Counted from the stretch's first letter, positions 1 to 14,360 are shown. The stretch is DNA of 14,360 bases from Bacteriovoracaceae bacterium (GCA_049599895.1 JBMYPC010000081.1:1-14360); one strand, 5' to 3'. The notes: a model not told the origin generated them from the sequence alone. Numbers and translations are program-made.

Positions 1-1140
1 AATTTTAACTTTTTGCGCCCCAGTTTCATCCAGATTTCCAAAAGGAATGTCGAGTCTTAGGCCAACTTCAAATCCAGCACGGTTTTCTTTAAAGGATTCA
101 TCAAGAGCGTCTTGAGCTCTTGGTTCAACACCATTAGTATTAAAGACTGATGTGAGTTTAAGATCAACATCATCGTATCTTTTACTGACTTTGATTTGCT
201 CGTTATAGAACTTTTCAAGGCTTTGGTTGATTTCATCATATGAAGAGAATTCAAAGGGTGTCTCTTCAAGAGTCTTAAGATAGCTCACGCACTGAAGAAC
301 GGTGCCTATTGTTTTATCAAAGCTGGGTTTATTAATAACGAATGTCATTCCGTTAAAGCTAGGAATCATATCTCTTAATCTCTGAAAGAGTTGTTCTTTT
401 TCAAATTGAAGAATGTTGATTTGATTTTTTCTTGAAGAAACCTGAGCTTTATATCTTGCAACCTCTCCTTTATCCGAGACAGAACTTCGCAGTCTTTGGA
501 TTGCTTGATCTCTTTGTTTTTCAGCTGTTTTTAATAATTCGCCGGCAATATCAAGGGAATGTTCTTTAGCAATGATTTGCCAATAAATGATTCTGAGCGA
601 ATTAAGAAAAACCTGTTTTTGAACTTGATTAGAGAGTTTTGTTGTTTCGACAGAATACTTAAGCCCCTTTTTTTGAGAAGCCTCAAGCCGTCCAAAAATA
701 TTCTTCCAAAGATCAAGGTTGATTCTAACCTGTGCCCCTGCAATGCTATTAATTGTGTCGACCCCACTAAACTCGTACTCTCTTTTATCTGTATAGACCT
801 GAGAGCTTAACTCAATCCCTTTACTGGTTTTCTTAGCTAAGCCTACAGAGAAAGCTTTCCTGGGTGAGTAGATCGGCTGAAATGAAATAAAGGGCTCTTC
901 ATAGGTTTTAGCATAGAGGGATTCCGCTTGCGCTCTTATGCTATATTGATCATCAAATTCACCAAGTCTCGCTTTCGTTTCAGTGAGGTTGGCCTCAAGT
1001 TGAATGAGGTCTGGAGCTTCGGAATTGACAACAATGGACTTCAAGAGTTCTTCGTTAAGATTGAGGACTTCATTGGCAAAAGTGGCTTCAACACCAAAGG
1101 CGATAAATGCCCAAAGTAGTCCCTTTTTAATACTAGTCAT
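1..1140 (-). CDS. TolC-family outer membrane efflux protein (partial, 3' end runs off the window)
   Basis: Translated by hand: open for 380 codons from ATG at 1140 to the window edge (MTSIKKGLLWAFIAFGVEATFANEVLNLNEELLK...). GGAG RBS 6 nt upstream. Signal peptide, then alternating beta segments and long helices typical of OEP repeats: 'GAQVRINLDLWKNIFGR', 'LRIIYWQIIAKEHSLDIAGELLKTAEKQRDQAIQRLRSSVSDKGEVARYKAQ', 'AGFEVGLRLDIPFG'. Confidence 0.8.
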   Translation of the reverse strand, partial: MTSIKKGLLWAFIAFGVEATFANEVLNLNEELLKSIVVNSEAPDLIQLEANLTETKARLGEFDDQYSIRAQAESLYAKTYEEPFISFQPIYSPRKAFSVGLAKKTSKGIELSSQVYTDKREYEFSGVDTINSIAGAQVRINLDLWKNIFGRLEASQKKGLKYSVETTKLSNQVQKQVFLNSLRIIYWQIIAKEHSLDIAGELLKTAEKQRDQAIQRLRSSVSDKGEVARYKAQVSSRKNQINILQFEKEQLFQRLRDMIPSFNGMTFVINKPSFDKTIGTVLQCVSYLKTLEETPFEFSSYDEINQSLEKFYNEQIKVSKRYDDVDLKLTSVFNTNGVEPRAQDALDESFKENRAGFEVGLRLDIPFGNLDETGAQKVKI

Positions 1141-1941: not shown

Positions 1942-1987
1942 CCGTACACTTAATGTATGAACTCATTTGAGATACGGAGCTAAACTC

Positions 1988-2671
1988 ATGAAAACTTATG
2001 AAATTGTTGTTGTTCGTCATGGCCAATCAGTATGGAATAAAGAAAACCGATTTACTGGTTGGGTGAATGTTAATCTTTCAGAACAAGGGTTGAGTGAGGC
2101 CAAAGCTGCAGGCGAGCTTTTAAAGAAAAACAATATCTCTTTTACAAAGATGCACACTTCTTATTTAAACCGGGCCATCAAGACTGGTTGGACAATCTTA
2201 GAAGAGTTAGGACTCATGAGTATTCCGGTTCAAAAATCATGGGAACTTAATGAAAGACATTACGGTGGTCTCCAAGGAAAAAATAAAAAAGAGACTGCAG
2301 AGATTCACGGTGACGACCAAGTGAAAATTTGGCGAAGATCATTTGATACTCCTCCACCAGAGTTAACAGAAGAGCAAGATTTATCCCCAGCTTTTCTTTA
2401 TGAAAAACTTGAAACGATTCCTAAGAGCGAAAGCTTAAAAGATACATGCCAAAGAGTGATTCCTTTTTGGAATGATGTGATTGCAAAAGATGTTCTTGCC
2501 GGAGAGAAAATTCTTATCGCAGCTCACGGAAATAGTATTCGAGGTCTTCTTAAGCATCTTAAGAATATTTCAGATGAAGAGATCGTAAAGCTTGAAATCC
2601 CAACAGGTAAGCCTATTGTTGTAAAGTTAGATGAAAACCTTAAGGCTGTGGAAGATTTCTTTCTTTCGTAA
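1988..2671 (+). CDS. gpmA: 2,3-bisphosphoglycerate-dependent phosphoglycerate mutase
   Basis: RHGQSVWNKENRFTGW, TSYLNRAIKT, LNERHYGGLQGKNK, QVKIWRRSFD, ESLKDT, AAHGNSIR and EIPTG motifs. Start placed at ATG 1988 because GGAG lies at 1976-1979; 227 aa. Confidence 0.96.
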   Translation: MKTYEIVVVRHGQSVWNKENRFTGWVNVNLSEQGLSEAKAAGELLKKNNISFTKMHTSYLNRAIKTGWTILEELGLMSIPVQKSWELNERHYGGLQGKNKKETAEIHGDDQVKIWRRSFDTPPPELTEEQDLSPAFLYEKLETIPKSESLKDTCQRVIPFWNDVIAKDVLAGEKILIAAHGNSIRGLLKHLKNISDEEIVKLEIPTGKPIVVKLDENLKAVEDFFLS

Positions 2672-2680
2672 ACCAGACTT

Positions 2681-3970
2681 TTAAGACTCAAGCTCTTTAA
2701 TTGCTTTTAAGTATTGTTCCATACAGTCTTTTTCATTAAGGAATTGGATTTCTCTATTCCACAGAACCCATTTGCCATTGATCATACTGTGTAAAACATC
2801 TGAGTTTGAAAGAGAAAAGATTATGTGAGACCAGATATCTTTAATTGGTTGGTTAATGATGTTCTTTTCAATAAAGATAAGATCGGCAAAGTTATTATTC
2901 TTTATAGATCCTATGCGCGAATCAAAAACCTGAGAAGGATTTTGAGTCATCGAGAAAAAGACTTTTTGGTAAAGATCATCATCGTCGACCCCTCGATCTT
3001 TTAAAAGAAGAGAAAGTATTTTTGCTTCTTGTAAAAGATCTGCTTGGTCATTTGAAGCGGCACAGTCTGTGGCCAGAGTTAAAGGAATTTGATTTTTATA
3101 AAACCTCTCTATAGGTGCAAGCTTTTCATAAATAATTTGTGAGCTTGGACAAGTTGTAATAGTTGTTCCTGAATCTTTTAAAATTTTAAGATCATCATCA
3201 TTTACGTGAAGAAGATGAACTGCTTGAGACCGATCTCCAAGCCAGCCCCTTTTGAGGGCCTTTTGAGTTGGGCTGCATCCATACTCTTTATGACAATAAT
3301 CCCACTCACTTTGAGTTTGTGAAAGATGAAAGTGAATAGGAAGGCCTGAAGATTTTAAAAAGTCTGAAATCTCTTTTGCATACTGATCAGATACTGTGTC
3401 AATTGCATGAGGACAGATGATAGGAGAGATTGTTTCACCTAATTGCCAATTATCGATCTCTTTTTTTACTTTTGTCAGAGTTTTATTTGATGGAAAGGCG
3501 CCAGAGAGGTCAGCAAGTGTTTCCCCAATAAAGCCCCTCATGCCAAGAATTTTTAAACAATTTCCAATTTCTTCGGAGAAGTAATAATGATCAACAAATG
3601 ATGTTGTTCCACTTTTAATTCCAGAGATAATATAGCTATAGCTTAGATCTTTTACCAATTTGGCTGTTAGCTTTGATTCCATTTTAAAGAAAATATTTTC
3701 AATCATATTCTTTTGACCATGAACAAGACCACGGAGAAAGTTCATTGGTGAATGAGTGTGGGAATTGATAAGACCTGGGAGAATAATGAAGTTTGATGCA
3801 TCAATTTCGAGGGTTTCAGATTCATTAACTTGATCACTGATGAGGTTATTATGAACGGTAAGTGTTTCATTCTCAATAAATTGATCACCTTTAAGATAAC
3901 TTGTATTCTTAAAAGAATAGCTCTTGGCCTTTGGAGGTGTTTGAGAATTAAGAGTGTGTTCAGTTTTCAT
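2681..3970 (-). CDS. Metal-dependent amidohydrolase, MtaD/TRZ-ATZ (COG0402-like) nucleoside deaminase family
   Basis: ILPGLINSHTHSPM (HxH metal motif), SGTTSFVDHY, CPHAIDT, IHFHLSQT, VHLLH, LATDCAASND, IGSIKNNNFADLI, VLHSMINGKWV. Substrate cannot be assigned from sequence alone. Confidence 0.88.
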   Translation of the reverse strand: MKTEHTLNSQTPPKAKSYSFKNTSYLKGDQFIENETLTVHNNLISDQVNESETLEIDASNFIILPGLINSHTHSPMNFLRGLVHGQKNMIENIFFKMESKLTAKLVKDLSYSYIISGIKSGTTSFVDHYYFSEEIGNCLKILGMRGFIGETLADLSGAFPSNKTLTKVKKEIDNWQLGETISPIICPHAIDTVSDQYAKEISDFLKSSGLPIHFHLSQTQSEWDYCHKEYGCSPTQKALKRGWLGDRSQAVHLLHVNDDDLKILKDSGTTITTCPSSQIIYEKLAPIERFYKNQIPLTLATDCAASNDQADLLQEAKILSLLLKDRGVDDDDLYQKVFFSMTQNPSQVFDSRIGSIKNNNFADLIFIEKNIINQPIKDIWSHIIFSLSNSDVLHSMINGKWVLWNREIQFLNEKDCMEQYLKAIKELES

Positions 3971-3981
3971 TTTAGACTCTT

Positions 3982-5664
3982 TTACTTAATAGTGAATTCA
4001 AATAAATCTGTTTCTTTAATATACGGGTTTTTATCATGAGGCTTTTTTTCAATTTTCCAGAAATACTTCCCTTTTTTGAGTCTGACTTTCATCGGAAACT
4101 CTGGATCTTTTTCAAATAAAAGAGGGTCAATGAGATTTTCCTCTCGATAGACAAGAAAGTTTACCTGATCAAGGTTTGTTGTCGCATCAAAGGTAATGGT
4201 TCTAAATCCTTTTTTGCTTTTAAACTGAGCGTAATTTGAAGGATTAAGATCTTGGGCAGCAGATTTGAGAACTTTGAGACTTTGAACCTCTGATTCAATT
4301 TTATATTTTGGTGAACTTACAGACCAATAATATTCTCCTTCCTGTTTAAAGAGAACTTGAGTTTCCTCACCAAGGGCTTGAATCTCTTTATCGAAAGAAG
4401 GGTCATTTTTTCTTTTAAGTTTTAGAATATACTCCTCATCTTTGTGAGCTTTCCAATTAAACTTAATAGACTTTCTTTTTCCTTGAATATCAAAAGATGC
4501 CAAGTGTCTTGGGGTTAGGAGTTCGATCTGATCGACTCCCCTGAAGATAAGTCTTCGCTCTTGGGAAAATGGAGCATTCTCATAATCAAAGGAAACTTTC
4601 CAAATATAAGTCCCAGGTTTTTTGATAGAGATTTGAAGAGATTTTTGACTTGAAACAATCTGTTGGTTCCATCTTTTTTGTGAACTATGACGATATGAAA
4701 AAATAAAATCTGAGAAATGAGGAGTCGACCATCTAAAGTTTACGATATTATTTTTTTTATAGTTAAAGGGGCGTTCTTCAGAAAAACGTGGAGATTCTAA
4801 TTTGGGAGGATCAGGTTCCACTAGTCTAAATGAACGAGTTTCGGAGATGGATTTTCCATTTGAATCTTTTAAGCGCCAGTAATAGATACCTGATTCGGGA
4901 AAGGTAAAGCGATGAGAATTTGCGATAGTTTTAGTCGAGACGAGTGTTTCATCAAAATCATAGGAATCAGAGACTTCGAGCTGAACCGAGTCCTCGTTGG
5001 GATTAGACCAAGTGAGGTTGATTCTCTTTGTTTTTAAAATTGAAAACTCTTGTTCGTTTTGCGGGCTCAACAGTTGATTACCTGACGTTTTCTTTATCGA
5101 AGAGTTAATGGGCCTATTTTCGACAGGGCCTTTTAATTTTGTCTTGGGCTTAACGGTTTTAAAACTTGGAATGATCGTCGCTGATTCATCTTCTGATTTT
5201 TTTGTTACTCGTAAAGACTTTTTAGGATCAAGGTTCTTTTGATCAATTTTTTTGCCGTTGATTTTGATTTTTTCGAGTTCTTGGATATTAAGGTAATCGA
5301 TTTCAAAGAAGCCAGAGTCCAAAATGAGGTTAATGTTTTGATTATTAGAGTCAGCATCAACTCGAACAAGAGTGTTGGGTGAGAGGTGGATAACGTATTG
5401 GGTTTTGTTAAACTTGATAATCGCGCTCGAGTTTTTTGAGGTAATAACTCGATCCCCATTAGAAAGCTTTTGACCGTTATAGGCATTTGACCAAGCGACT
5501 GTGCCCTTGGGTTGGACTTTTGCCTTTCCGAGAATGTTGATTATTGTGGCAACTGAGTTTTTTTCTTGGGTATTAGTGGTGATAAAGTCAGAAAAAAAAC
5601 CTAGGACGCCAGCAATCACCAGAGTGATTGAGAACCCTACGAGAAATTTATCACTTTTTTCCAT
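3982..5664 (-). CDS. Membrane-anchored FecR-domain protein with four C-terminal Ig/Fn3-like repeats
   Basis: N-terminal TM helix (FLVGFSITLVIAGVLGFF); FecR-like segment 'GKAKVQPKGTVAWSNAYNGQKLSNGDRVITSKNSSAIIKF...IHLSPNTLVRV'; four repeats containing L.SP/TP...W...G.Y.W (GIYYWRL, GTYIWKV, GEYYWSV, GKYFWKI). It ends 11 bp before the amidohydrolase start. Confidence 0.78.
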   Translation of the reverse strand: MEKSDKFLVGFSITLVIAGVLGFFSDFITTNTQEKNSVATIINILGKAKVQPKGTVAWSNAYNGQKLSNGDRVITSKNSSAIIKFNKTQYVIHLSPNTLVRVDADSNNQNINLILDSGFFEIDYLNIQELEKIKINGKKIDQKNLDPKKSLRVTKKSEDESATIIPSFKTVKPKTKLKGPVENRPINSSIKKTSGNQLLSPQNEQEFSILKTKRINLTWSNPNEDSVQLEVSDSYDFDETLVSTKTIANSHRFTFPESGIYYWRLKDSNGKSISETRSFRLVEPDPPKLESPRFSEERPFNYKKNNIVNFRWSTPHFSDFIFSYRHSSQKRWNQQIVSSQKSLQISIKKPGTYIWKVSFDYENAPFSQERRLIFRGVDQIELLTPRHLASFDIQGKRKSIKFNWKAHKDEEYILKLKRKNDPSFDKEIQALGEETQVLFKQEGEYYWSVSSPKYKIESEVQSLKVLKSAAQDLNPSNYAQFKSKKGFRTITFDATTNLDQVNFLVYREENLIDPLLFEKDPEFPMKVRLKKGKYFWKIEKKPHDKNPYIKETDLFEFTIK

Positions 5665-5737: not shown

Positions 5738-8398
5738 TTGAAGAGCGCATTGGATTCATTAAAAATAGGCAAGAACTCAAATATTGGTGACATCAATAAA
5801 AAAGTTAATGTGCCATTAAAGTTCAAGTTTATTGTCGTTTATAGCTCGTTAATTTTTTCAACAGTTCTTCTTTATTTATACTTTGCTTTTAATTTTTATA
5901 TTGAAGATAAGACAGCCTATGTTTTTGAGCGTGGTCTTAGTGAAGCAGAAAGTATCTTTGATGAATATAAAGTTTATTCTCAGAAACTGTATCAGCAAAT
6001 CGCAAGTCTTTCTCTTTTAAGCAAAGAGGAAATTGCGAGAAGAAAAGCATTGTTTCAAACTCAAGAAGATCTTTTTTCTTATCATCAAGGATCCGTTGTT
6101 GATGGAAAACTCAAGATTAATTTCAATTCATTCCATGATGATCTTATTAAAGAAATAGAGGCAAAGAACTATAAGGTTAATTTTAAAAATGCTTTGGGAT
6201 TCCAACTTGAAAAGTTTATCACTCTCAAAGATCAAGCTGCGGTTCTTAAGCCAGCGCAAGCCCTGACAGGGTTTCCCTCCCTTGTCATGGCCTTGAAACC
6301 ACAAGATGGCAGTGGAAAAGTCTTTATTGGAATTCTTTCACTGATCAATCTTCAAAAAAGACTTCTCAAGAAAAAGAATTTCTATATAGGAATGTATGAC
6401 TACGAAGGAAAACCTCTTTTTGAGAATCAATCTATTCCTGAAAACATTCTAAAGAAAATCCTAAATGAAAATCATTCAAATGGATCATTCGGTGCAGAGG
6501 GAGTTTTTTCAAAGAAAGAAGATCTTGTTTCCTTTATCAAAGATAAAACCCTTAATTTAACAGTGATTATCTCAACCCCTAAAGAAGTTGCTTATGGTGC
6601 GGCTAGAAAACTATTAATTGAAAGTTTTAGTTTTTCCGCGATCTTAATTGGAGCTTCAATATTTATCTCAATTCTTTTTGCTTGGGGAGTGACAAGACCT
6701 CTTCGAAATCTTCTCGAGGGAACTGTTGGTGTGATTAATGGAGACTTTGAACAGAAAATAGATGTGAAATCAAATGATGAAATTGGAATTTTAACGAATT
6801 CGTTCAACTTAATGACGGCTGAAATTAATGACCTTATTAAAAATAAACAGTTCGTGATTGATGAACTCGTTGAGGCCAAAACTCAGATCATGGAATATAA
6901 CAAAAACCTTGAGACAATTGTTGAGAGTAGAACAAAAAGGCTTTCTGAAGCGAATAGTTTTCTTGATGCAATTGTAAACTCTATTGATGAAGGGATTCTT
7001 GTGGTGAAACCTGATGGCACCTGCCATGAGTTTTACACAAAGGTTTGTGAGGATTTCTTTCCTGTTGTACCTCGAGAGCAAAGATTAATTGATGTGTTAA
7101 AAATCGATGATCCTACTGAGCAGAAGACCTTAGAGAGTTGGATTGATAATATCTTTAGTGAGACGATTTCTTTTGAAGAAATGGCCGAGCTTGGTCCGTC
7201 TCATTATAGTGAGGGGACATTAGGAGAGAACCAGTTTAAGCAAATCTCACTTCGTTACTTCCCAATTAGAGATGGAAATAGAGATATTATTTATTTAGTC
7301 GTTGTTGCGACCAATGAGACAAGGCGCGTGACTCAAGATGCCGCTTTTAAGAGGCAACAAGAAGATGTTGACATGATCATTAAGATTCTTGAAGCGAGAG
7401 AGAACTTTCTTACTTTTATTAAAGAATCAAAACAATTTCTTAATCAAATGATTTCGGATGTTGAACGTGGCAGTATCGATAAAAACTCAATTCTTATTGG
7501 ATTGCATTCACTGAAAGGAACTTGCTCGATCTTTGCCATTCATTCTTTAATTCGAAGTCTCCATGAAGCAGAAGACAAAATGAAGTTGGCTGATTCGAGT
7601 GAAAATCAACAGCGCTATGTTTATGGCATACTCAATGATGTTCAAATTGAGTTTAGTGCTTTACTTAACTATGCCTCAAAAATTATTGGCATTAATCTCC
7701 ATGAAGGGGAGGAGATTGTTCGACTTGATAAGTCTTTGGTGGTGGATTTTGCTCAAAAGGTTGAAGGCGCACAAAATCAAGAACTTCATAAAGAATATCT
7801 TGAGAACTTTGTTTATTATTCGGGAAAAGTTCTATTTAAAGGATATGAAATTCTGATTCAAGACCTTTCCAAAAAATTAGGGAAAAAGATTTCTCCTCTA
7901 ATTGTTAATAATGAGGATATTCCGATCCCTCCAGAGTTTGAGGAGTTCTTCTCCTCTCTTATCCATCTCTTTCGAAACGTTGTGGACCATGGAATAGAGT
8001 ATCCTTCAGAGAGAATACAAGCAAACAAAACAGAATTTGGAAAAGTTAAAGTGGAGCTAAAGTATTTTTATTCAGAAAATGAAAAGCAGGAGTTTCTCAA
8101 CGTTAGTATTCAAGATGATGGTAAAGGCATTGACCCTGAACAGATCCGACAAAAAGCAATTGAAAAAAATATTCAAGAAGTGGCAGGTCTTTCTGATGAA
8201 TCAATTATTTATGGGATCTTCCACCCTGAAATTTCAACCTCAAGTAAAGTAACGACGGTTTCTGGTCGTGGGGTTGGAATGGCGGCAATCAAAAAAACTG
8301 TAGATGCTTATCACGGTGAAATTCATATGAAGTCAATTAAAGGTGTTGGAACTAACTTTCTTTTTAAACTTCCGGTCAATCGTCCATATCGATCTTAA
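5738..8398 (+). CDS. Membrane sensor histidine kinase: TM-periplasmic (Cache-like)-TM-HAMP-PAS-like-HPt-CheA-type HATPase, no CheW domain
   Basis: Two TM helices; HAMP 'VTRPLRNLLEGTVGVINGDFEQKIDVKSNDEIGILTNSFNLMT'; PAS-like start 'IVNSIDEGILVVKPDG'; HPt 'LHSLKG' (His codon 7505-7507); CheA-type N box 'LIHLFRNVVDHGIE', G1 'DDGKGID', G2 'STSSKVTTVSGRGVGM'. The protein ends right after the ATPase domain. The TTG start is uncertain. Confidence 0.88.
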   Translation: MKSALDSLKIGKNSNIGDINKKVNVPLKFKFIVVYSSLIFSTVLLYLYFAFNFYIEDKTAYVFERGLSEAESIFDEYKVYSQKLYQQIASLSLLSKEEIARRKALFQTQEDLFSYHQGSVVDGKLKINFNSFHDDLIKEIEAKNYKVNFKNALGFQLEKFITLKDQAAVLKPAQALTGFPSLVMALKPQDGSGKVFIGILSLINLQKRLLKKKNFYIGMYDYEGKPLFENQSIPENILKKILNENHSNGSFGAEGVFSKKEDLVSFIKDKTLNLTVIISTPKEVAYGAARKLLIESFSFSAILIGASIFISILFAWGVTRPLRNLLEGTVGVINGDFEQKIDVKSNDEIGILTNSFNLMTAEINDLIKNKQFVIDELVEAKTQIMEYNKNLETIVESRTKRLSEANSFLDAIVNSIDEGILVVKPDGTCHEFYTKVCEDFFPVVPREQRLIDVLKIDDPTEQKTLESWIDNIFSETISFEEMAELGPSHYSEGTLGENQFKQISLRYFPIRDGNRDIIYLVVVATNETRRVTQDAAFKRQQEDVDMIIKILEARENFLTFIKESKQFLNQMISDVERGSIDKNSILIGLHSLKGTCSIFAIHSLIRSLHEAEDKMKLADSSENQQRYVYGILNDVQIEFSALLNYASKIIGINLHEGEEIVRLDKSLVVDFAQKVEGAQNQELHKEYLENFVYYSGKVLFKGYEILIQDLSKKLGKKISPLIVNNEDIPIPPEFEEFFSSLIHLFRNVVDHGIEYPSERIQANKTEFGKVKVELKYFYSENEKQEFLNVSIQDDGKGIDPEQIRQKAIEKNIQEVAGLSDESIIYGIFHPEISTSSKVTTVSGRGVGMAAIKKTVDAYHGEIHMKSIKGVGTNFLFKLPVNRPYRS

Positions 8399-10911
8399 AA
8401 CTGAAAGAGTGAAAGAACTGGGTCGTGATCAGAGATTCTTCCCATGTAATCTGAGTTAAAATTAAGGATCTCAAATTGAGGAGATCTTTCCATTAATTTC
8501 TTATTGGCAAAAATATAATCAAGAGATTGAGAATTCCCTTGAAAGTTCGTTGTGTAACGTTCGTTTTTTGGAAGGAGATAAATGAGGTTATCAAGAACTG
8601 TATTTTCGAGTTGCTTCATTGGTTGAGAGTCATAATAGTCATTGAAATCACCGACGGCAACAATGTGGGCATCAGGAGAGTTCTTTTCAATATAGCGGAT
8701 AAACTCATTCACTTTCTTCGCCATAAGCATTCTTTTTTCTTCTGATTTTTTAACAACTGGTTGATTCGCTCCAAAGTTTGGACTGTCTCCAAGTTTTGAA
8801 TTGAAGTGATTGCCAATAACAAAAACTTTTTTACCCTTAAACTCAAATTCAGCGACAAGACTTTTTCTGGTTCGATAAAAAGCCTTATGATGTGGAAAGA
8901 CTCGACCAGGATTGTTGTTAAGGCTTCCATTGGCCATAACCTTAGCTTCAGCAGTTCCATTTTCAGCGTTTCGGTAAATAAACTTTACTTTGCTTTTATT
9001 GTACATCATGGCGACTCGAATATTCCCACCTGGTTGACCACCTTCATTATGATTAACAGGATCAATATTGATGTAGTCATAGTTCTCGCAAGTGAGTTCA
9101 CCCAGGAGCTTGCTAAGGGTTGCTTCTGCACTTGATGTCCCTGAAAAGTCGGGACCGTTAAAATCTTGAATCTCAACTAGAGTGAGAATGTCTGGACACT
9201 TAAGGCGATTCGAAATCGATTCGGCAACAAGAGCAATTTTATGGTCTTGAAATCCAGCGAGATTTTTTACGTTATAAGAAGCTATTGAGAGAGAATTTTC
9301 ATCGCTAAGGAGTTTTGTGACTTCTTGTTTCTTACGATCTTCAGCAACAAGATTTTGAGCATAGTTAACAAGGGGTCCTTGTTCCTCTGGAACGATCATA
9401 TTGAAATGACCATCTCCAAAAAGGTTTTTTTCATAACTCATAACACCAATAATTTCGCCTTCAATCATGTCTCCAACGCTATAAAGAGCGTCGATGTTTA
9501 CACCCTTTGAAAGGTGGTTGGTTGCAATGGTGATAATCTCTGGATTAAAGTCGTTATTTTTAGAGTCAATAATAATCCCGTTTGCTTTTGTGTCCTGAGG
9601 ATTACCAAGATGTCCATCAGCAAGGAAGTGAAGGTTGAGATAGCCTTTAGGTCCATCATTTTCAAGTTCCTCACGACCTCCACGAAAGCCAACAATTCTT
9701 GGGTTCTTAACTTTAATTCTCATGCCTTCAAGACTTTCCCAGAAATCAAGAGCATCATTTAAGTTAAGAGAAGTTTTTTTATTAACATTGCCTCTATAGC
9801 TCGAAGCAACTTTATTGGGAACAGGACGTCCCTCTTTACCAATCAGAACAGGCTTAGGAAGAGAGTTTCTTTTTGAGAGGACTTGATAACTTGAAATGTT
9901 TCTTAAACTTGTTCGAGAAAGACCTGTTCGGCTTGAGAATTGTTCAAAAATAATACCTTTGAGTTGGATTAAGTCTCCTAGTTCAGGTTTGTTGTGAAGC
10001 TCAAAAAACTCCTTTGGGTTTTCAATGAAGATATGAAGACCCTCTGAGGTTTTGGGGTTTCCATCGTCTGATTGGGTGTGAATAAAAATGTCATAACCAC
10101 CTGGATATCTTTCCACTTCTCCATGGGCCACAACAATTCCCTGAGTGAGAACTTTATGGGCCATAAATGGTGAGAGAAAGGATTGACCTTGGATTTCAGA
10201 GATCTTTTTCTTTCCAATATAGCTTTTCGTATGGTTCTTAACCGTTGCTCTTCTTTCGACTAGAAGAGGAATTCGTCTCAGTTTTTTGAGATAGCTTCTT
10301 AGAGAGTCTCTTGCTGAGATTTCATTGTTGATTCTTCTTCTAAAGTCTCCTTGAAGACCATTTCGATATTTGTAACCTGGGAAAGTTTTAAAATTTGCGT
10401 AGAAATAATCGCTAATCGCAACTTTATAGTATTCATCGTCTTTTAAAGTTGAGCTTTTATTAAGAGAGATATTCTTGATCAGAGGCTGTCCGCCTTGGAA
10501 TTGAATATCATAGCGAACTCCTGAAACTTGAAGTTCTGCTGAGTAGACGTCTTGGATTCTTTCAAAGATAAACTTTTTAATTTTTGATCCGCGCATTGTT
10601 CCAAGGCGAAATTTGTCCTTGCTTCCTCGAGGGAAAAGATTGAGAACTTCTTCAATCTCATAATCGCGCATACGAGGTCTTACAGTGCCATACTCATTAC
10701 TTCGAATAAAATTTGATGGGTAAAAGACAATATCAAGGTCGTGCTCTTCCTTGATGGCGTCGGCCATAAGGTTTCCGGTTGTGGTTGAGCCATTTTTGAT
10801 ATTTCTTGATTCGAGAAGCACTTCTCGATAGGGAGGCTCAGAATACTCTTGCGAGCAGCCAATAAAAAGGACGAGCAGTGAAAGAAGAGAAAGCTTAAAA
10901 GATTTCTTCAT
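8395..10911 (-). CDS. Lipoprotein extracellular nuclease: 5'-nucleotidase C-terminal domain + OB fold + EEP (ExeM/NucH-like) domain
   Basis: Lipobox LFIG-C. 5'-nucleotidase-C-like motifs (TTGNLMADAI, EEVLNLFP, MRGSKIKKFI, LQVSGVRYDI, LKDDEYYKVAISDYF). OB/ExeM-like motifs (ISEIQGQSFLSP, DDGNPKTSEGLHIF, GDLIQLKG, FWESLEGMRIKV). EEP catalytic set intact (ASYNVKNL, LVEIQD, GGQPGGNIR, NHFNSK, GDFND, LDYI, SDHDP). GGAGGG RBS lies inside the end of the upstream gene. Confidence 0.88.
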   Translation of the reverse strand: MKKSFKLSLLSLLVLFIGCSQEYSEPPYREVLLESRNIKNGSTTTGNLMADAIKEEHDLDIVFYPSNFIRSNEYGTVRPRMRDYEIEEVLNLFPRGSKDKFRLGTMRGSKIKKFIFERIQDVYSAELQVSGVRYDIQFQGGQPLIKNISLNKSSTLKDDEYYKVAISDYFYANFKTFPGYKYRNGLQGDFRRRINNEISARDSLRSYLKKLRRIPLLVERRATVKNHTKSYIGKKKISEIQGQSFLSPFMAHKVLTQGIVVAHGEVERYPGGYDIFIHTQSDDGNPKTSEGLHIFIENPKEFFELHNKPELGDLIQLKGIIFEQFSSRTGLSRTSLRNISSYQVLSKRNSLPKPVLIGKEGRPVPNKVASSYRGNVNKKTSLNLNDALDFWESLEGMRIKVKNPRIVGFRGGREELENDGPKGYLNLHFLADGHLGNPQDTKANGIIIDSKNNDFNPEIITIATNHLSKGVNIDALYSVGDMIEGEIIGVMSYEKNLFGDGHFNMIVPEEQGPLVNYAQNLVAEDRKKQEVTKLLSDENSLSIASYNVKNLAGFQDHKIALVAESISNRLKCPDILTLVEIQDFNGPDFSGTSSAEATLSKLLGELTCENYDYINIDPVNHNEGGQPGGNIRVAMMYNKSKVKFIYRNAENGTAEAKVMANGSLNNNPGRVFPHHKAFYRTRKSLVAEFEFKGKKVFVIGNHFNSKLGDSPNFGANQPVVKKSEEKRMLMAKKVNEFIRYIEKNSPDAHIVAVGDFNDYYDSQPMKQLENTVLDNLIYLLPKNERYTTNFQGNSQSLDYIFANKKLMERSPQFEILNFNSDYMGRISDHDPVLSLFQF

Positions 10912-10912
10912 C

Positions 10913-11980
10913 TTAGTTCGTCCCTCCGGTAGTTGTTGTGTCGGGGACCTCTTGTTGAACAGGTGGTGTTTGAGGCTCTTCTTGTTGTACAGGAGGGGGC
11001 TCTGGTGTTTGGAAATTCATTCGATAGGTTTTGTACTTAAGAGTGTCTCCAATCCCCCAAATATTAATATTGGCAATCTCCCAAACCTGATCATCCGATT
11101 CTTCTGAAATAAATTGAAAGGCAAGAACGATCTCTTTTCCTTTATAAGGAGTGAGGTCTATGGCCTTTGATGTGAGATCTGTCCATCTTCCAGGGCTGGC
11201 AACACTTGGATCTTCAATGTAATCTATTTCATCCCAAGCTGTTGCACTAGGATCATCTCCATTGTAGTCAGTAGAGATTTTGACTTTGAGTTTATCCCAA
11301 ATGGGATTTTTCACAGTAAGGTCGATCTTCATTTTAAGATCTTCTGCATTTACAAGAGAGATTTTAGGAGAAAGAAGCCATGATTCTCCCACGGCTTTTT
11401 CACCATCTTTAAAGTTTGCAATTTTGGCGAATCGATATCTTCCAGAGAGTTGGAAGGCTTCCCACTCCGGAGCAGTATGACTGAGTCTCGCTGACTGAAA
11501 GGGGTGGAGTTTCGGTTTATTGAAAGAATGTTTAAAGAGCTCAAATTTGATGGTTTTCACATTTACCTTATGAGCTTTTGCGTATTTATAAAGAATGATA
11601 TTGGCCTTCTTTTCAATACTCTTCACTCGATTTTCATCCTGTCTTAAGAAAGGATATTTTGAAAATTGAGTCACTGAACGATAAAGAAGTTTGATGGATT
11701 CCTGGGCGTCAACACCTCGGTCGAGTTTGATAAGAGAAATTTTGATTCTAAAAAGAGTCTTTTGAATTGCTTTTCTTTCTTGAGAGGTATTAGAGGCTAA
11801 AAATTCTTTGTCTTCAATTGCTGCTTGGAGACCATTGATTTCAATAACGGCAGCTTGAATCTCTTGATCTTGAATGTTTCGACTATCAAATTCGGTTTGA
11901 CCTCTGTCTCCTCCACAAGACCCCAGTAAGAAGAGACCTAGTAGAGCGAGTGAGCGAAACAAGACTGTACAGAAGTTCAT
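10913..11980 (-). CDS. Lipoprotein with N-terminal helical region, DUF5017/cleaved-adhesin (choice-of-anchor J)-like beta-sandwich and Pro/Gln/Thr-rich tail
   Basis: Start placed at ATG 11980 (AAGGGA RBS upstream; MNFCTVLFRSLALLGLFLLGS-CGG lipobox). Domain signature 'ESWLLSPKISL...LKVKISTDYNGDDPSATAWDEI...WTDLTSKAIDLTPYKGKEIVLAFQF...WEIANINIWG'; 355 aa. Confidence 0.75.
   Translation of the reverse strand: MNFCTVLFRSLALLGLFLLGSCGGDRGQTEFDSRNIQDQEIQAAVIEINGLQAAIEDKEFLASNTSQERKAIQKTLFRIKISLIKLDRGVDAQESIKLLYRSVTQFSKYPFLRQDENRVKSIEKKANIILYKYAKAHKVNVKTIKFELFKHSFNKPKLHPFQSARLSHTAPEWEAFQLSGRYRFAKIANFKDGEKAVGESWLLSPKISLVNAEDLKMKIDLTVKNPIWDKLKVKISTDYNGDDPSATAWDEIDYIEDPSVASPGRWTDLTSKAIDLTPYKGKEIVLAFQFISEESDDQVWEIANINIWGIGDTLKYKTYRMNFQTPEPPPVQQEEPQTPPVQQEVPDTTTTGGTN
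10950..10996 (-). repeat. Short imperfect intragenic direct repeat, 30-bp period, encoding PPVQQE twice
   Basis: tcttgttgaacaggtgg (10950-10966) versus tcttgttgtacaggagg (10980-10996), 15 of 17 identical. Confidence 0.7.
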
Positions 11981-11990
11981 AATAAATCCC

Positions 11991-13397
11991 TTAGAGTTTA
12001 AAAATCTCTCCAGCATCAAAGTTATAGTTAATTTCAATTGAAAGTAGCCAGTCACTATCTTTATAAGAACTTAAGAAGCGATCTTCTTGGACGTCAGCAC
12101 TATTTCCAAAGACTTTGTTCTTTGCCTTAAAGTATTCAATCTCTGGCTTGATTTCATATTTTCCTTGAAGGATATAAGTTCCAAAACCATATCGAGTAAG
12201 ACCACCATGTGAGAGGGCATCGTCAAAAGTTCTGAGGCGATGAGCCGATTCTCTTTCGCGAAAAACAAAATGCTCACTTTGGTTTTTATAAGAGATATAG
12301 GGGATGACATTTTCTAGTCTTGTTCCCAGCTTAAGGCTGTAGGCCATACCAGATTGGTCGATCCAGTTCTGTCTGTTTCCATAATAATCGAGATAGATCG
12401 GTTCAAAAGGATTCTCTTCCTTGAACCAGCTTCCAGAAGAGTTGAGGTTATAAGGGTTATCACCGGCTTTTGATCGAGTGACTTCGGCAGAAATAAGAAT
12501 CTTGTTGTTGAATTCAGAGGCAAGTTGAAGAGAGCTTGCTGAAGAAAGAAGAGAGCCTGTTTCTTTTGCTTCGCTGTGAGATACATGTTTTGCTTTTGTC
12601 CAAAGCTTAAGAGAGTTGGTGATAAATTTTCCTTCTATACCAAATTGCGTCCCAAAGTCTTCTCTACGCTCCCATCTTTCAACGCTTGTATTAGATTCAA
12701 TATTGAAATCTTCGTTGGATGGATGAAGATAAGTGGCAACTCCAAACCCTGCTGAAAGTTTGATCATTTCTTCAAAATCAAAAGCGAGAACAAAGCCAGG
12801 AATTGTTTTTGTTTCAATTTTTACATCACTTGAGTTGGTTCCTGATAAAGGTGTAGGAGCTCCGTCAATAGAATAGATTCTTGTAACATCGTAAGTGTTA
12901 AACTCGCTTCCAACATCACCGTCAAAGTTATAAGGATAAAAAGTTATCCCAAATCCAAGAGTTGGAAGAATTTGAGTGTTATATTGGACAAAGGTTTTGT
13001 CCGAATCAAGATCTGGCCCAAAACTGATGGCCTTGGAGTCACTGGTGTCGCCATTGTCATCATCAGTTTTCAGTTCAAGATCGAGACCAAATTTAAATTT
13101 CTGATAACGGTGGTTTAAAAGAAATTCAAATTTAGAAGTTTTACTATCAAAGGTATCTTCAACAGGATCGGTCTCAAAACCAAATGTCAGTGAAAAGTCT
13201 TTACTGTACTGATATTTTAACTTTGCATCGACTTCAACCTGATCTCCCGCTTCAGCATTTTTTGAGCTACTGTAGAGATGATCTTCGTAGCTAAAGCTAT
13301 CGATTGAAAACTTTGAAGTCTTTGGTGATTCAGAAAAAGCGTCAAAGGCCAGGAGATTTGAGCAAGCAACAAGAATAGAGATCCAACGTGATTTCAT
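11991..13397 (-). CDS. Exported hypothetical protein, probable outer-membrane beta-barrel/porin
   Basis: Sec signal peptide (MKSRWISILVACSNLLAFDAFS); many amphipathic beta-strands with aromatic ends (VEVDAKLKYQY, FEFLLNHRY, FKFGLDLELK, IKLSAGFGVATY, AYSLKLGTR, YEIKPEIEYF, WLLSIEINYNF). I do not recognise the family. Confidence 0.65.
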   Translation of the reverse strand: MKSRWISILVACSNLLAFDAFSESPKTSKFSIDSFSYEDHLYSSSKNAEAGDQVEVDAKLKYQYSKDFSLTFGFETDPVEDTFDSKTSKFEFLLNHRYQKFKFGLDLELKTDDDNGDTSDSKAISFGPDLDSDKTFVQYNTQILPTLGFGITFYPYNFDGDVGSEFNTYDVTRIYSIDGAPTPLSGTNSSDVKIETKTIPGFVLAFDFEEMIKLSAGFGVATYLHPSNEDFNIESNTSVERWERREDFGTQFGIEGKFITNSLKLWTKAKHVSHSEAKETGSLLSSASSLQLASEFNNKILISAEVTRSKAGDNPYNLNSSGSWFKEENPFEPIYLDYYGNRQNWIDQSGMAYSLKLGTRLENVIPYISYKNQSEHFVFRERESAHRLRTFDDALSHGGLTRYGFGTYILQGKYEIKPEIEYFKAKNKVFGNSADVQEDRFLSSYKDSDWLLSIEINYNFDAGEIFKL

Positions 13398-13437
13398 AGC
13401 AAAAAAGTACCTTTTCTCGATTGGGTTCTAGACAGGG

Positions 13438-13485
13438 CCAAAACCTAAGTAATTTCCTTATTTTTCAAATACCTTAGAGTTTTGG
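13438..13485. promoter_or_regulatory. Imperfect inverted repeat upstream of the barrel/lipoprotein/nuclease operon
   Basis: CCAAAAC-CTAAG (13438-13449) pairs with CTTAG-A-GTTTTGG (13473-13485) with a one-base bulge around a 23-nt AT-rich spacer. Confidence 0.35.
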
Positions 13486-13692
13486 TTTGCGCCAATAAAT
13501 TGCATTCTTTACAGCGGTGCGTGATGTGAATGAATCGAACCGATTTCTTTTTAATTCCAGTGGTTTAGTCATTTCGAGAAAGTATTTTTCTAATATATTT
13601 AAAATGATTTCTTTATAAAGTGGTGCCGAAACTTCACCAAAATTATGCTTGAGGAAAAAATTTTTAAATTAGGAGCTGGGGCCAGTCCCTCT

Positions 13693-13743
13693 TATAATGG
13701 TTGGAGTATTTTCAATAATTTAATCGAACTTATTTGCGAGGAG
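13693..13743 (+). promoter_or_regulatory. Candidate -10 box and ribosome-binding site of gltA
   Basis: TATAAT at 13693-13698 (no good -35 seen); GAGGAG at 13738-13743, 9 nt before ATG 13753. Confidence 0.5.
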
Positions 13744-13752
13744 AACCGTATT

Positions 13753-14360
13753 ATGAGCAATACTGCTAAAATCCAACATGGAGATGTGGACTTTGAATGC
13801 CCTGTCGTTGTTGGCTCTGAAGGAGAGAAGGGGATAGATATCTCAAAACTGAGAGCTGAAACAGGTTTAATCACCATTGATAATGGGTTTGGTAACACGT
13901 GTACGGGACAAAGTGCGATTACCTTCTTGGATGGTGAGAAGGGGATTCTTCGTTATCGTGGGATTTCTATTGAGGACCTTGCCAAGAACTCGAGCTTCCT
14001 AGAAGTTGCTTATCTTTTAATTTATGGAAACCTTCCGACTCAAGAGCAGTATAGTACTTGGGAAAATAAAATTAAGAGGCATACTCTTTTAAAAGAAAAC
14101 TTTTCTCAATTTTTTAATGCCTTCCCAAGAGATGCTCACCCAATGGGAGTTCTTGCTTCATCAGTAAGTGCGCTTTCGACTTTTTATCAAGAGTTCCTTG
14201 ATCCTAAGAATACTGAAGAGGTGGATGAAGTGATCGTTCGATTAATGGGGAAACTTCCAACGATTGCTTCATATGCTTATAAGACATCAATTGGTCAGCC
14301 AAGAATTTATCCTCAAAATAGTTTGGATTATTGTTCAAATTTTTTAAATATGATGTTCTC
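13753..14360 (+). CDS. gltA: Citrate synthase, type II (partial, runs off the right edge)
   Basis: Translated by hand: MSNTAKIQHGDVDFECPVVVGSEGEKGIDISKLRAETGLITIDNGFGNT...SAITFLDGEKGILRYRGISIEDLAKNSSFLEVAYLLIYGNLPT...FPRDAHPMGVL...RLMGKLPTIASYAYKTSIGQPRIYPQNSLDYCSNFLNMMF. Strong RBS. Confidence 0.97.
   Translation, partial: MSNTAKIQHGDVDFECPVVVGSEGEKGIDISKLRAETGLITIDNGFGNTCTGQSAITFLDGEKGILRYRGISIEDLAKNSSFLEVAYLLIYGNLPTQEQYSTWENKIKRHTLLKENFSQFFNAFPRDAHPMGVLASSVSALSTFYQEFLDPKNTEEVDEVIVRLMGKLPTIASYAYKTSIGQPRIYPQNSLDYCSNFLNMMF

Follow-up and report, generated by a model that had tools for sequence, protein, structure and literature searches.

A co-inherited cassette of barrel, J-domain lipoprotein and lipoprotein nuclease in Bdellovibrionota and Oligoflexia: a candidate porin-based unit for harvesting DNA

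Three envelope genes at the locus

We analysed a stretch of 14,360 nucleotides from a Bacteriovoracaceae bacterium (GCA_049599895.1, JBMYPC010000081.1:1-14360), hereafter the window, and within it a cassette of three minus-strand open reading frames, all of envelope type, at 11991-13397, 10913-11980 and 8395-10911 (468, 355 and 838 amino acids (aa), gene 2 being counted from the ATG at 11980). A sequence-only reading of this DNA had pointed to the tight spacing of the trio and to an intergenic region of its own upstream, and both observations held: the gaps within the cassette are 10 base pairs (bp; 11981-11990) and 1 bp (10912), and a region of 247 bp (13398-13644), presumed to contain the promoter, separates gene 1 from the divergent citrate synthase gene (13645-14358, plus strand), with which it is shared. 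At the other end, the stop codons of the nuclease gene and of a convergent sensor kinase gene overlap at 8395-8398. All three cassette genes are single-copy in the genome, and the DNA was matched in a seawater sequencing run, which may be its source.

Gene 1 (P0001; 11991-13397, minus strand) encodes a predicted outer-membrane β-barrel with no family match in Pfam or NCBIfam. Its probable Sec signal peptide (residues 1-22; 13332-13397, minus strand) was read by eye and appears in the model as a low-confidence N-terminal helix. The AlphaFold2 model (predicted local distance difference test, pLDDT, 91.5; predicted template modelling score 0.89) predicts an 18-strand barrel of the porin class. 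In the model, nine long loops extend from one side of the barrel and short turns close the opposite side, and there is neither a plug nor a periplasmic domain. Among the Foldseek and VIA-align matches, porins stood at the top and were tied at Z 15.5-16.4 (maltoporin and PorB 16.4, chitoporin 16.2, OprP 15.5), with a root-mean-square deviation (rmsd) of 3.6-5.1 and an identity of at most 12%; Omp85/TpsB barrels (Z 12-14) and TonB-dependent transporters ranked behind them. The predicted fold class includes passive channels, LamB, PorB, chitoporin, OprD and OprP among them, in keeping with the earlier view of the protein as a barrel without a plug. A fragment of a TonB-dependent receptor was rejected as an identity for gene 1, given its 468 aa, its 18 strands and the absence of a plug from the model.

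A profile search of 1.84 billion representatives with gene 1 gave 75 clusters, and no relative emerged when solved structures were searched with a profile of the barrel alignment. The feature matches of the barrel in the Atlas were unnamed clusters, MOSP/Tpr and OprD-type porins, none of them decisive. Gene 1 is comparable to the 16-18-strand porins (LamB, ScrY, chitoporin, OprD/Occ, OprP, AlgE) in predicted fold class, size and lack of a plug, and differs from them in its low identity, its tied matches, the absence of a profile match, its conserved long outer loops and its two fixed lipoprotein partners. Conservation is highest in the long loops (0.64), intermediate in the strands (0.54) and lowest in the short turns (0.27, with no turn position at ≥90%), and among the close homologues aligned the lengths of the long loops are nearly fixed. 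Gene 1 appears to belong to an unnamed barrel family with two obligate lipoprotein partners. A nearer long-loop homologue, P0148, comes from Hypnocyclicus thermotrophus (Fusobacteriota). A second unnamed barrel family (P0156-P0184, 360-470 aa) shows full-length homology to gene 1 (E 5e-41, residues 34-460); these distant barrels mostly have shorter loops L4, L7 and L9, and gene 1 has an L4 and an L7 of about twice the length found in most of them. Single members give weak matches to the FomA family (E 1e-6, below the cut-off) and to BBP2 (E 2e-7), and one, P0178, had no match in plasmids.

Gene 2 (P0002; 10913-11980, minus strand) encodes a lipoprotein whose model (pLDDT 88) comprises a tether after the lipid-bearing Cys, disordered with pLDDT <50 at residues 26-36, a four-helix bundle (residues 39-136; 11573-11866, minus strand) and one jelly-roll domain (residues 146-312; 11045-11545, minus strand). 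The protein passes the choice-of-anchor J model NF038128 (45.6 bits vs a cut-off of 30) and scores below the cut-off of Pfam DUF5017 (E 5e-4, 20.1 vs 28.8), which one homologue reaches with 29.1. In VIA-align, the jelly-roll reached Z 13.8 against 8jiy and Z 13.1 against gingipain K1 (4itc; rmsd 3.1, 151 aligned); it resembles the cleaved-adhesin domains of gingipains and carbohydrate-binding modules, so the DUF5017/cleaved-adhesin-like label proposed from the sequence stands. The nearest Atlas clusters are DUF5017/DUF5689 proteins of Bacteroidota, and the gene-2 profile matches a DUF5017+DUF5689 protein with E 1.6e-7. Structural matches of the helical domain (Z 10-11) are generic bundles. Homologues carry one helix bundle each and a variable number of J domains, from 1 to 4. 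The C-terminal tail (window positions 10913-11010) is a short duplicated stretch rich in Pro, Gln and Glu that is absent or shortened in most homologues.

Gene 3 (P0003; 8395-10911, minus strand) encodes a lipoprotein in which a 5'-nucleotidase-C-like domain is followed by two OB domains and then by an EEP nuclease domain, and it scores above the Pfam cut-offs of PF02872, PF03372 and PF19580. Residues 236-835 align with the OB3-OB4-nuclease part of Streptococcus pyogenes SpnA (PDB 9SF8/9SF9) at E 1e-72. The OB3/OB4-like region covers about residues 236-535 (9307-10206, minus strand), as placed by the alignment to 9SF9, with domain names as used in the accessible part of PMC13601614. In the EEP domain (8398-9291, minus strand), nine active-site positions (N547, E580, R682, H702, D755, N757, D798, D828 and H829) are each invariant in 58/58 cassette nucleases, and gene 3 has residues equivalent to SpnA E592, R696, H716, D767, N769, D810 and D842. 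Judged by its sequence, gene 3 is an SpnA-type lipoprotein DNase with an intact DNase I-like site. The sequence-only reading had drawn on EEP/ExeM-type enzymes as the known parallel; the EEP assignment stood, and membership of ExeM/NucH (NF033681) was rejected because the score of 130.6 bits lies below the cut-off of 300. With SpnA it has in common an OB3-OB4-EEP core of about 600 residues in which catalytic and metal residues are kept. SpnA differs in its OB1-OB2 domains and LPXTG cell-wall anchor, as described in the accessible part of PMC13601614, whereas gene 3 has a lipobox and the 5'-nucleotidase-C-like domain and is tied to a barrel.

That N-terminal domain (residues 34-173; 10393-10812, minus strand), which the sequence-only reading had missed, passes PF02872 with 44.1 bits vs 23.6 and was seen only in cassette-linked nucleases. 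The protein begins with its lipobox and PF02872 domain and ends directly after an SDHDP motif. A true 5'-nucleotidase was rejected for gene 3, the catalytic domain being absent and the UshA substrate residues not conserved. The domain has conserved residues of its own (R118 in 41/43 homologues; P178 and Y180 invariant), from which we infer a role in docking or in altered binding.

The lipoboxes are Cys22-Gly23 in gene 2 and Cys19-Ser20 in gene 3, and the aligned Cys is present in 50/50 and 43/43 homologues, respectively. The lipoproteins proposed earlier were thus upheld, with the Sec signal of gene 1 remaining a reading by eye. The accompanying argument, that the residue at +2 indicates outer-membrane sorting, is weak here because Asp occurs at +2 in some homologues (5/50 for gene 2 and 3/43 for gene 3).

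Gene order and distribution of the cassette

Queried with one barrel protein alone, GTDB returned no match; with the barrel alignment as query it yielded 52 loci, a number that leaves out L001-L004 (own or duplicate loci). Gene 2 lies directly after the barrel gene in all 52, and gene 3 then follows in 50; in the remaining two, the contig ends inside gene 2. A chance neighbourhood was rejected on these counts, and the syntenic arrangement that the sequence-only reading had anticipated was found.

Co-occurrence across the phylum agreed with gene order. Among 401 genomes, including that of the host and with the top 2-5 candidates per genome scored, the barrel was matched in 34 and the nuclease in the identical 34; gene 2 was matched in all of these and, weakly (E 7.6e-6, in a frame of 140 aa), once more. 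In most genomes searched the cassette was not found, and the matches span 4 families and 17 genera; genera in which it is patchy are patchy for all three genes alike (g16, 3/9; g29, 1/3; g68, 2/3). The barrel occurs in 32/186 genomes of the host's family and in 22/131 genomes of Oligoflexia, the class of the Oligoflexus record. When 20 Oligoflexia regions were fetched, at least one of which duplicates a GTDB locus, 16 contained all three genes in order and the other 4 broke off either at gene 2 or within it. Among named records, Bacteriovorax, Bdellovibrionales and Oligoflexus have the closest homologues of the barrel, and named carriers of the cassette are Bacteriovorax sp. DB6_IX and Seq25_V, which bears out the suggested affiliation to Bdellovibrionota and adds Oligoflexia. 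We know of no predators among Oligoflexia. Word-based homologue searches, which gave 2 matches for gene 2 and 9 for the gene-3 N-domain, are insensitive and have no bearing on this range.

As a reciprocal control, we collected 80 metagenome loci with the nuclease alignment. The N-terminal 5'-nucleotidase-C-like domain was present in 23, and in 21 of these gene 2 lies directly upstream, the barrel also being present in 17; the rest stop at a contig edge. Among nucleases lacking the domain, gene 2 or the barrel was found in 0/57, at least 1 kb of upstream DNA being available in 32/57. Trees of barrel and nuclease from 58 loci had 28/35 and 32/40 supported splits in common. We conclude that the three genes are one co-inherited unit, in an arrangement far beyond chance. 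As kin are not independent, the counts show a stable unit and not a statistical probability.

Mixed record titles within clades may point to lateral transfer of the cassette. Locus L024, from a record titled Sulfitobacter, shares its gene layout with the Halobacteriovorax-titled L023, so its title is probably wrong. Flanking genes differ between clades, and because the flanks are not conserved we did not extend the cassette beyond three genes.

A candidate surface unit for harvesting DNA, and its alternatives

To place the cassette among known systems, we compared it with the ddbABCDEF loci for DNA utilisation in Bacteroidales. According to the accessible part of PMC12478041, these are built on the TonB-dependent transporter DdbC and its DUF5689 partner DdbD, of which DUF5689 is the predicted DNA-binding part, and they are needed to deplete exogenous DNA and to convert it to nucleobases; BT3560-3563 is a related Bacteroides locus (PMC8851478, accessible part). 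In both systems, a gene for an outer-membrane barrel is followed by those for a putative binding lipoprotein and an exported lipoprotein nuclease (in the cassette judged from the lipobox Cys in 43/43 and the EEP residues in 58/58), distribution is patchy among close relatives, and the J/DUF5017 domain family is common to the cassette and ddb-type loci. The cassette differs from ddb in its 468-aa barrel, predicted to be 18-stranded and plug-less and belonging to an unnamed family, in the absence of DUF5689, in its SpnA-type nuclease with a 5'-nucleotidase-C-like N-domain, and in its phylum. As it has neither the TonB-dependent DdbC nor the DUF5689 protein DdbD, it is not a member of ddb; PF00593 matches in the genome all lie on contigs other than that of the cassette. 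The ddb locus and the cassette likely work in a similar way.

The J/DUF5017 domain of gene 2 also occurs in RA0C_RS04920 of Riemerella (PMC8459023, accessible part), a protein reported to be homologous to DdbD (PMC12478041, accessible part). The pair RA0C_RS04915/04920 likewise places a J/DUF5017 protein beside an outer-membrane barrel gene and handles DNA (PMC8459023, accessible part); it differs in having a DdbC-homologue barrel and a DUF5689 partner and in serving transformation, whereas the cassette is not ComEC-linked in the genomes compared.

The sequence-only reading did not recognise the combination of genes as a described system. This remains true of the cassette itself, of which we found no description in the open literature, subscription papers and supplements lying outside the search, and it needs qualifying since the ddb loci follow the same logic with a TonB-dependent transporter (PMC12478041, accessible part). 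The words 'porin' and 'Bdellovibrio' are absent from the main text of that paper, and the accessible parts of a description of Bdellovibrio nucleases (PMC7925074) and of a phylum-wide comparison (PMC11656739) mention no such cassette.

We propose that the cassette serves to harvest DNA at the cell surface, as a porin-based counterpart of the ddb loci of Bacteroidota in which the predicted barrel would admit small products without TonB, and we give this reading a probability of about 0.55. Both lipoproteins would reach the outer surface and dock on the conserved outer loops of the barrel through their cassette-specific N-terminal domains, the helix bundle in gene 2 and the 5'-nucleotidase-C-like domain in gene 3. 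There, the SpnA-like lipoprotein would cut extracellular DNA, with the J-domain lipoprotein as its putative binding or tethering partner. Small products, presumably nucleosides, nucleotides or very short oligomers rather than long DNA, would diffuse through the plug-less 18-strand barrel into the periplasm, and would be salvaged as phosphorus, nitrogen and precursors via ordinary inner-membrane transporters; a NupC-type nucleoside transporter gene is present elsewhere in the genome.

If so, the cassette would extend a theme known mainly from Bacteroidota, where polymer-utilisation loci of barrel, binding lipoprotein and degrading lipoprotein rely on TonB-dependent transporters and where the DNA-directed version, ddb, has been on record only since 2025. 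It would represent an independent solution on a passive porin-class barrel in the largely marine Bdellovibrionota and in Oligoflexia, and a candidate path by which predatory bacteria could move nucleic-acid products through their outer membrane. The new barrel family with its obligate lipoprotein partners would be suited to cryo-electron microscopy and would offer a handle on lipoprotein surface delivery in the Bdellovibrionota phylum.

Several observations weigh against a DNA-harvesting role. With a net charge of -23 in gene 1 and a family mean of -16, the mature barrel is acidic overall, which is unexpected for a polyanion channel and argues against DNA passing through it. By a crude sequence estimate based on residue alternation, its lumen-side charges sum to about -2, acidic and basic residues being mixed and no arginine ladder being apparent; in OprP-type anion channels, such a ladder lines the pore. 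DUF5689 (PF18942) was found neither in gene 2 nor in the 97%-complete genome, the Bacteroides thetaiotaomicron control being positive, and the J domain carries a net negative charge; DNA binding by gene 2 thus lacks direct support. In the gene 3 N-domain, the positions equivalent to the UshA substrate residues, which we take to be R375, R379, R410, F429, F498 and D504, are not kept: Arg stands at the R410 equivalent in 4/43, F429 and D504 are lost, and the sole kept feature is an aromatic residue at or next to the F498 equivalent, placed by motif on a weak alignment. A UshA-like catalytic (metallophosphoesterase) domain was found neither in gene 3 nor, by phmmer, in the genome. Single marker genes for de novo purine and pyrimidine synthesis are present, so salvage is probably not essential. 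Among the flanks compared, no conserved inner-membrane transporter, phosphatase or regulator lies beside the cassette; a Pho-box-like site was not found upstream in the window, and such a pattern occurs in 4/53 upstream regions of cassette loci. To our knowledge, no surface-exposure route for lipoproteins is known in this phylum.

Some of the same evidence bears on a different role for the barrel, that of a display or anchoring device which threads or holds both lipoproteins outside, with products entering through general porins or not being taken up. Slam-like and RcsF-OMP-like logic provides a precedent for barrel-linked lipoprotein display. The strict one-to-one co-occurrence of barrel and lipoproteins is consistent with such a device, as are the disordered tether of gene 2 and the cassette-specific N-terminal domain on each lipoprotein; the conserved outer loops of fixed length, with L4 and L7 about twice those of most distant barrels, would suit protein docking, and an acidic barrel is poorly suited to nucleotide transport. 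Against it, the model contains no TPR, POTRA or other periplasmic domain, solute porins, with Z about 16, outrank Omp85/TpsB translocons (Z 12-14) among the fold matches, and the distant relatives resemble ordinary porins in their weak FomA-family and BBP2 matches. The Slam or type XI lipoprotein translocon combines an N-terminal TPR domain with a 14-strand barrel, and gene 1 differs from it in the 18 strands and missing periplasmic domain of its model. We regard display as the main alternative, a possible but less probable function than DNA harvesting. A complex prediction for barrel residues 23-468 with gene 2 residues 23-325 scored 0.00 against a mark of 0.32, which is no answer and is not evidence either way.

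A more speculative scheme, which we put forward tentatively, joins display and uptake in a 'porin utilisome': the barrel would bring the two lipoproteins to the surface, hold them on its loops via their N-domains and also admit the products, independently of energy. Were this true, lipoproteins would be displayed by a route that has no relation to Slam, Bam or SusCD, and the barrel would found a new class of outer-membrane machine.

The cassette could also remove DNA without feeding on it, as a tethered surface DNase that clears a way to or from prey through biofilm matrix or viscous lysate, or that shapes the cell's own biofilm. The gene 2 fold, with its matches to cleaved-adhesin and carbohydrate-binding modules and its variable repeat number, is compatible with this, and the accessible parts of two papers report that bile-induced biofilm depends on BT3563, from the related Bacteroides locus (PMC8851478), and that Bdellovibrio nuclease mutants alter biofilm behaviour (PMC7925074). 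We consider DNA removal alone unlikely, as it leaves the constant presence of a specific barrel unexplained and as generic SpnA-like nucleases elsewhere work without the cassette (0/57).

Both lipoproteins might instead face the periplasm on the outer membrane, the default location in most diderm bacteria, with the barrel admitting oligonucleotides and the nuclease finishing their degradation inside. The cassette has no surface-export gene, the barrel possibly excepted, which would fit. Such an arrangement is improbable given that the periplasm-side turns of the barrel are its least conserved part (0.27, none at ≥90%) and the outer loops the most conserved, and that oligonucleotides are unlikely to pass an acidic 18-strand pore.

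An outer-membrane entry system for natural transformation, which the need for the J/DUF5017 protein RA0C_RS04920 in Riemerella anatipestifer transformation (PMC8459023 and PMC12478041, accessible parts) might recall, is very improbable here: a surface DNase with invariant catalytic residues is always present, plug and energy coupling are absent, and ComEC has no match in the host genome and no link to the cassette (18/33 cassette genomes vs 13/30 others, with ComEC matches weak in the phylum).

Neighbouring genes and the upstream region

Apart from the cassette, the window encodes a HAMP/Hpt/HATPase sensor kinase (5738-8398, plus strand), convergent with the nuclease gene, and, divergent to the kinase, a 560-aa membrane-anchored β-rich protein (3982-5664, minus strand) with only a marginal TIGR04183 score and no clear family. 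The remaining genes, encoding a TolC-like efflux protein (1-1140, minus strand), a phosphoglycerate mutase-like protein of the histidine-phosphatase family (1967-2671, plus strand), an amidohydrolase (2681-3970, minus strand) and the citrate synthase, are ordinary and are not kept beside the cassette elsewhere.

In some clades, enzymes of nucleic-acid or phosphate metabolism lie near the cassette, none of them universally: two EEP proteins, one of them matching PF19580, an S1/P1-nuclease-like protein and a protein resembling LNS2/HAD phosphatases (L037:6075-7226, L006:13978-14751, L141:7326-8468, L146:1026-2204 and L003:3015-3887). Split frames, two in each case, occur in gene 2 at L011:2034-4122 and in gene 3 at L038:4164-6291 and L147:7606-10256, through assembly error or decay.

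A sigma-70 scan of the upstream region gave nothing convincing, with fewer sites than in shuffles (4 vs 11.7). A motif close to AATTTTTACAA was not seen upstream of the cassette in the window itself. Several Bacteriovoracaceae clades have it in common, some 70-92 bases before the start of the barrel gene (L012, L013, L015-L024, L030-L035 and L054), and its 8-mer occurs in 19/53 upstream regions, from loci that are related, vs at most 11 across 30 simple shuffles. The AATTTTTACAA-like motif may be a candidate regulator site in these clades.

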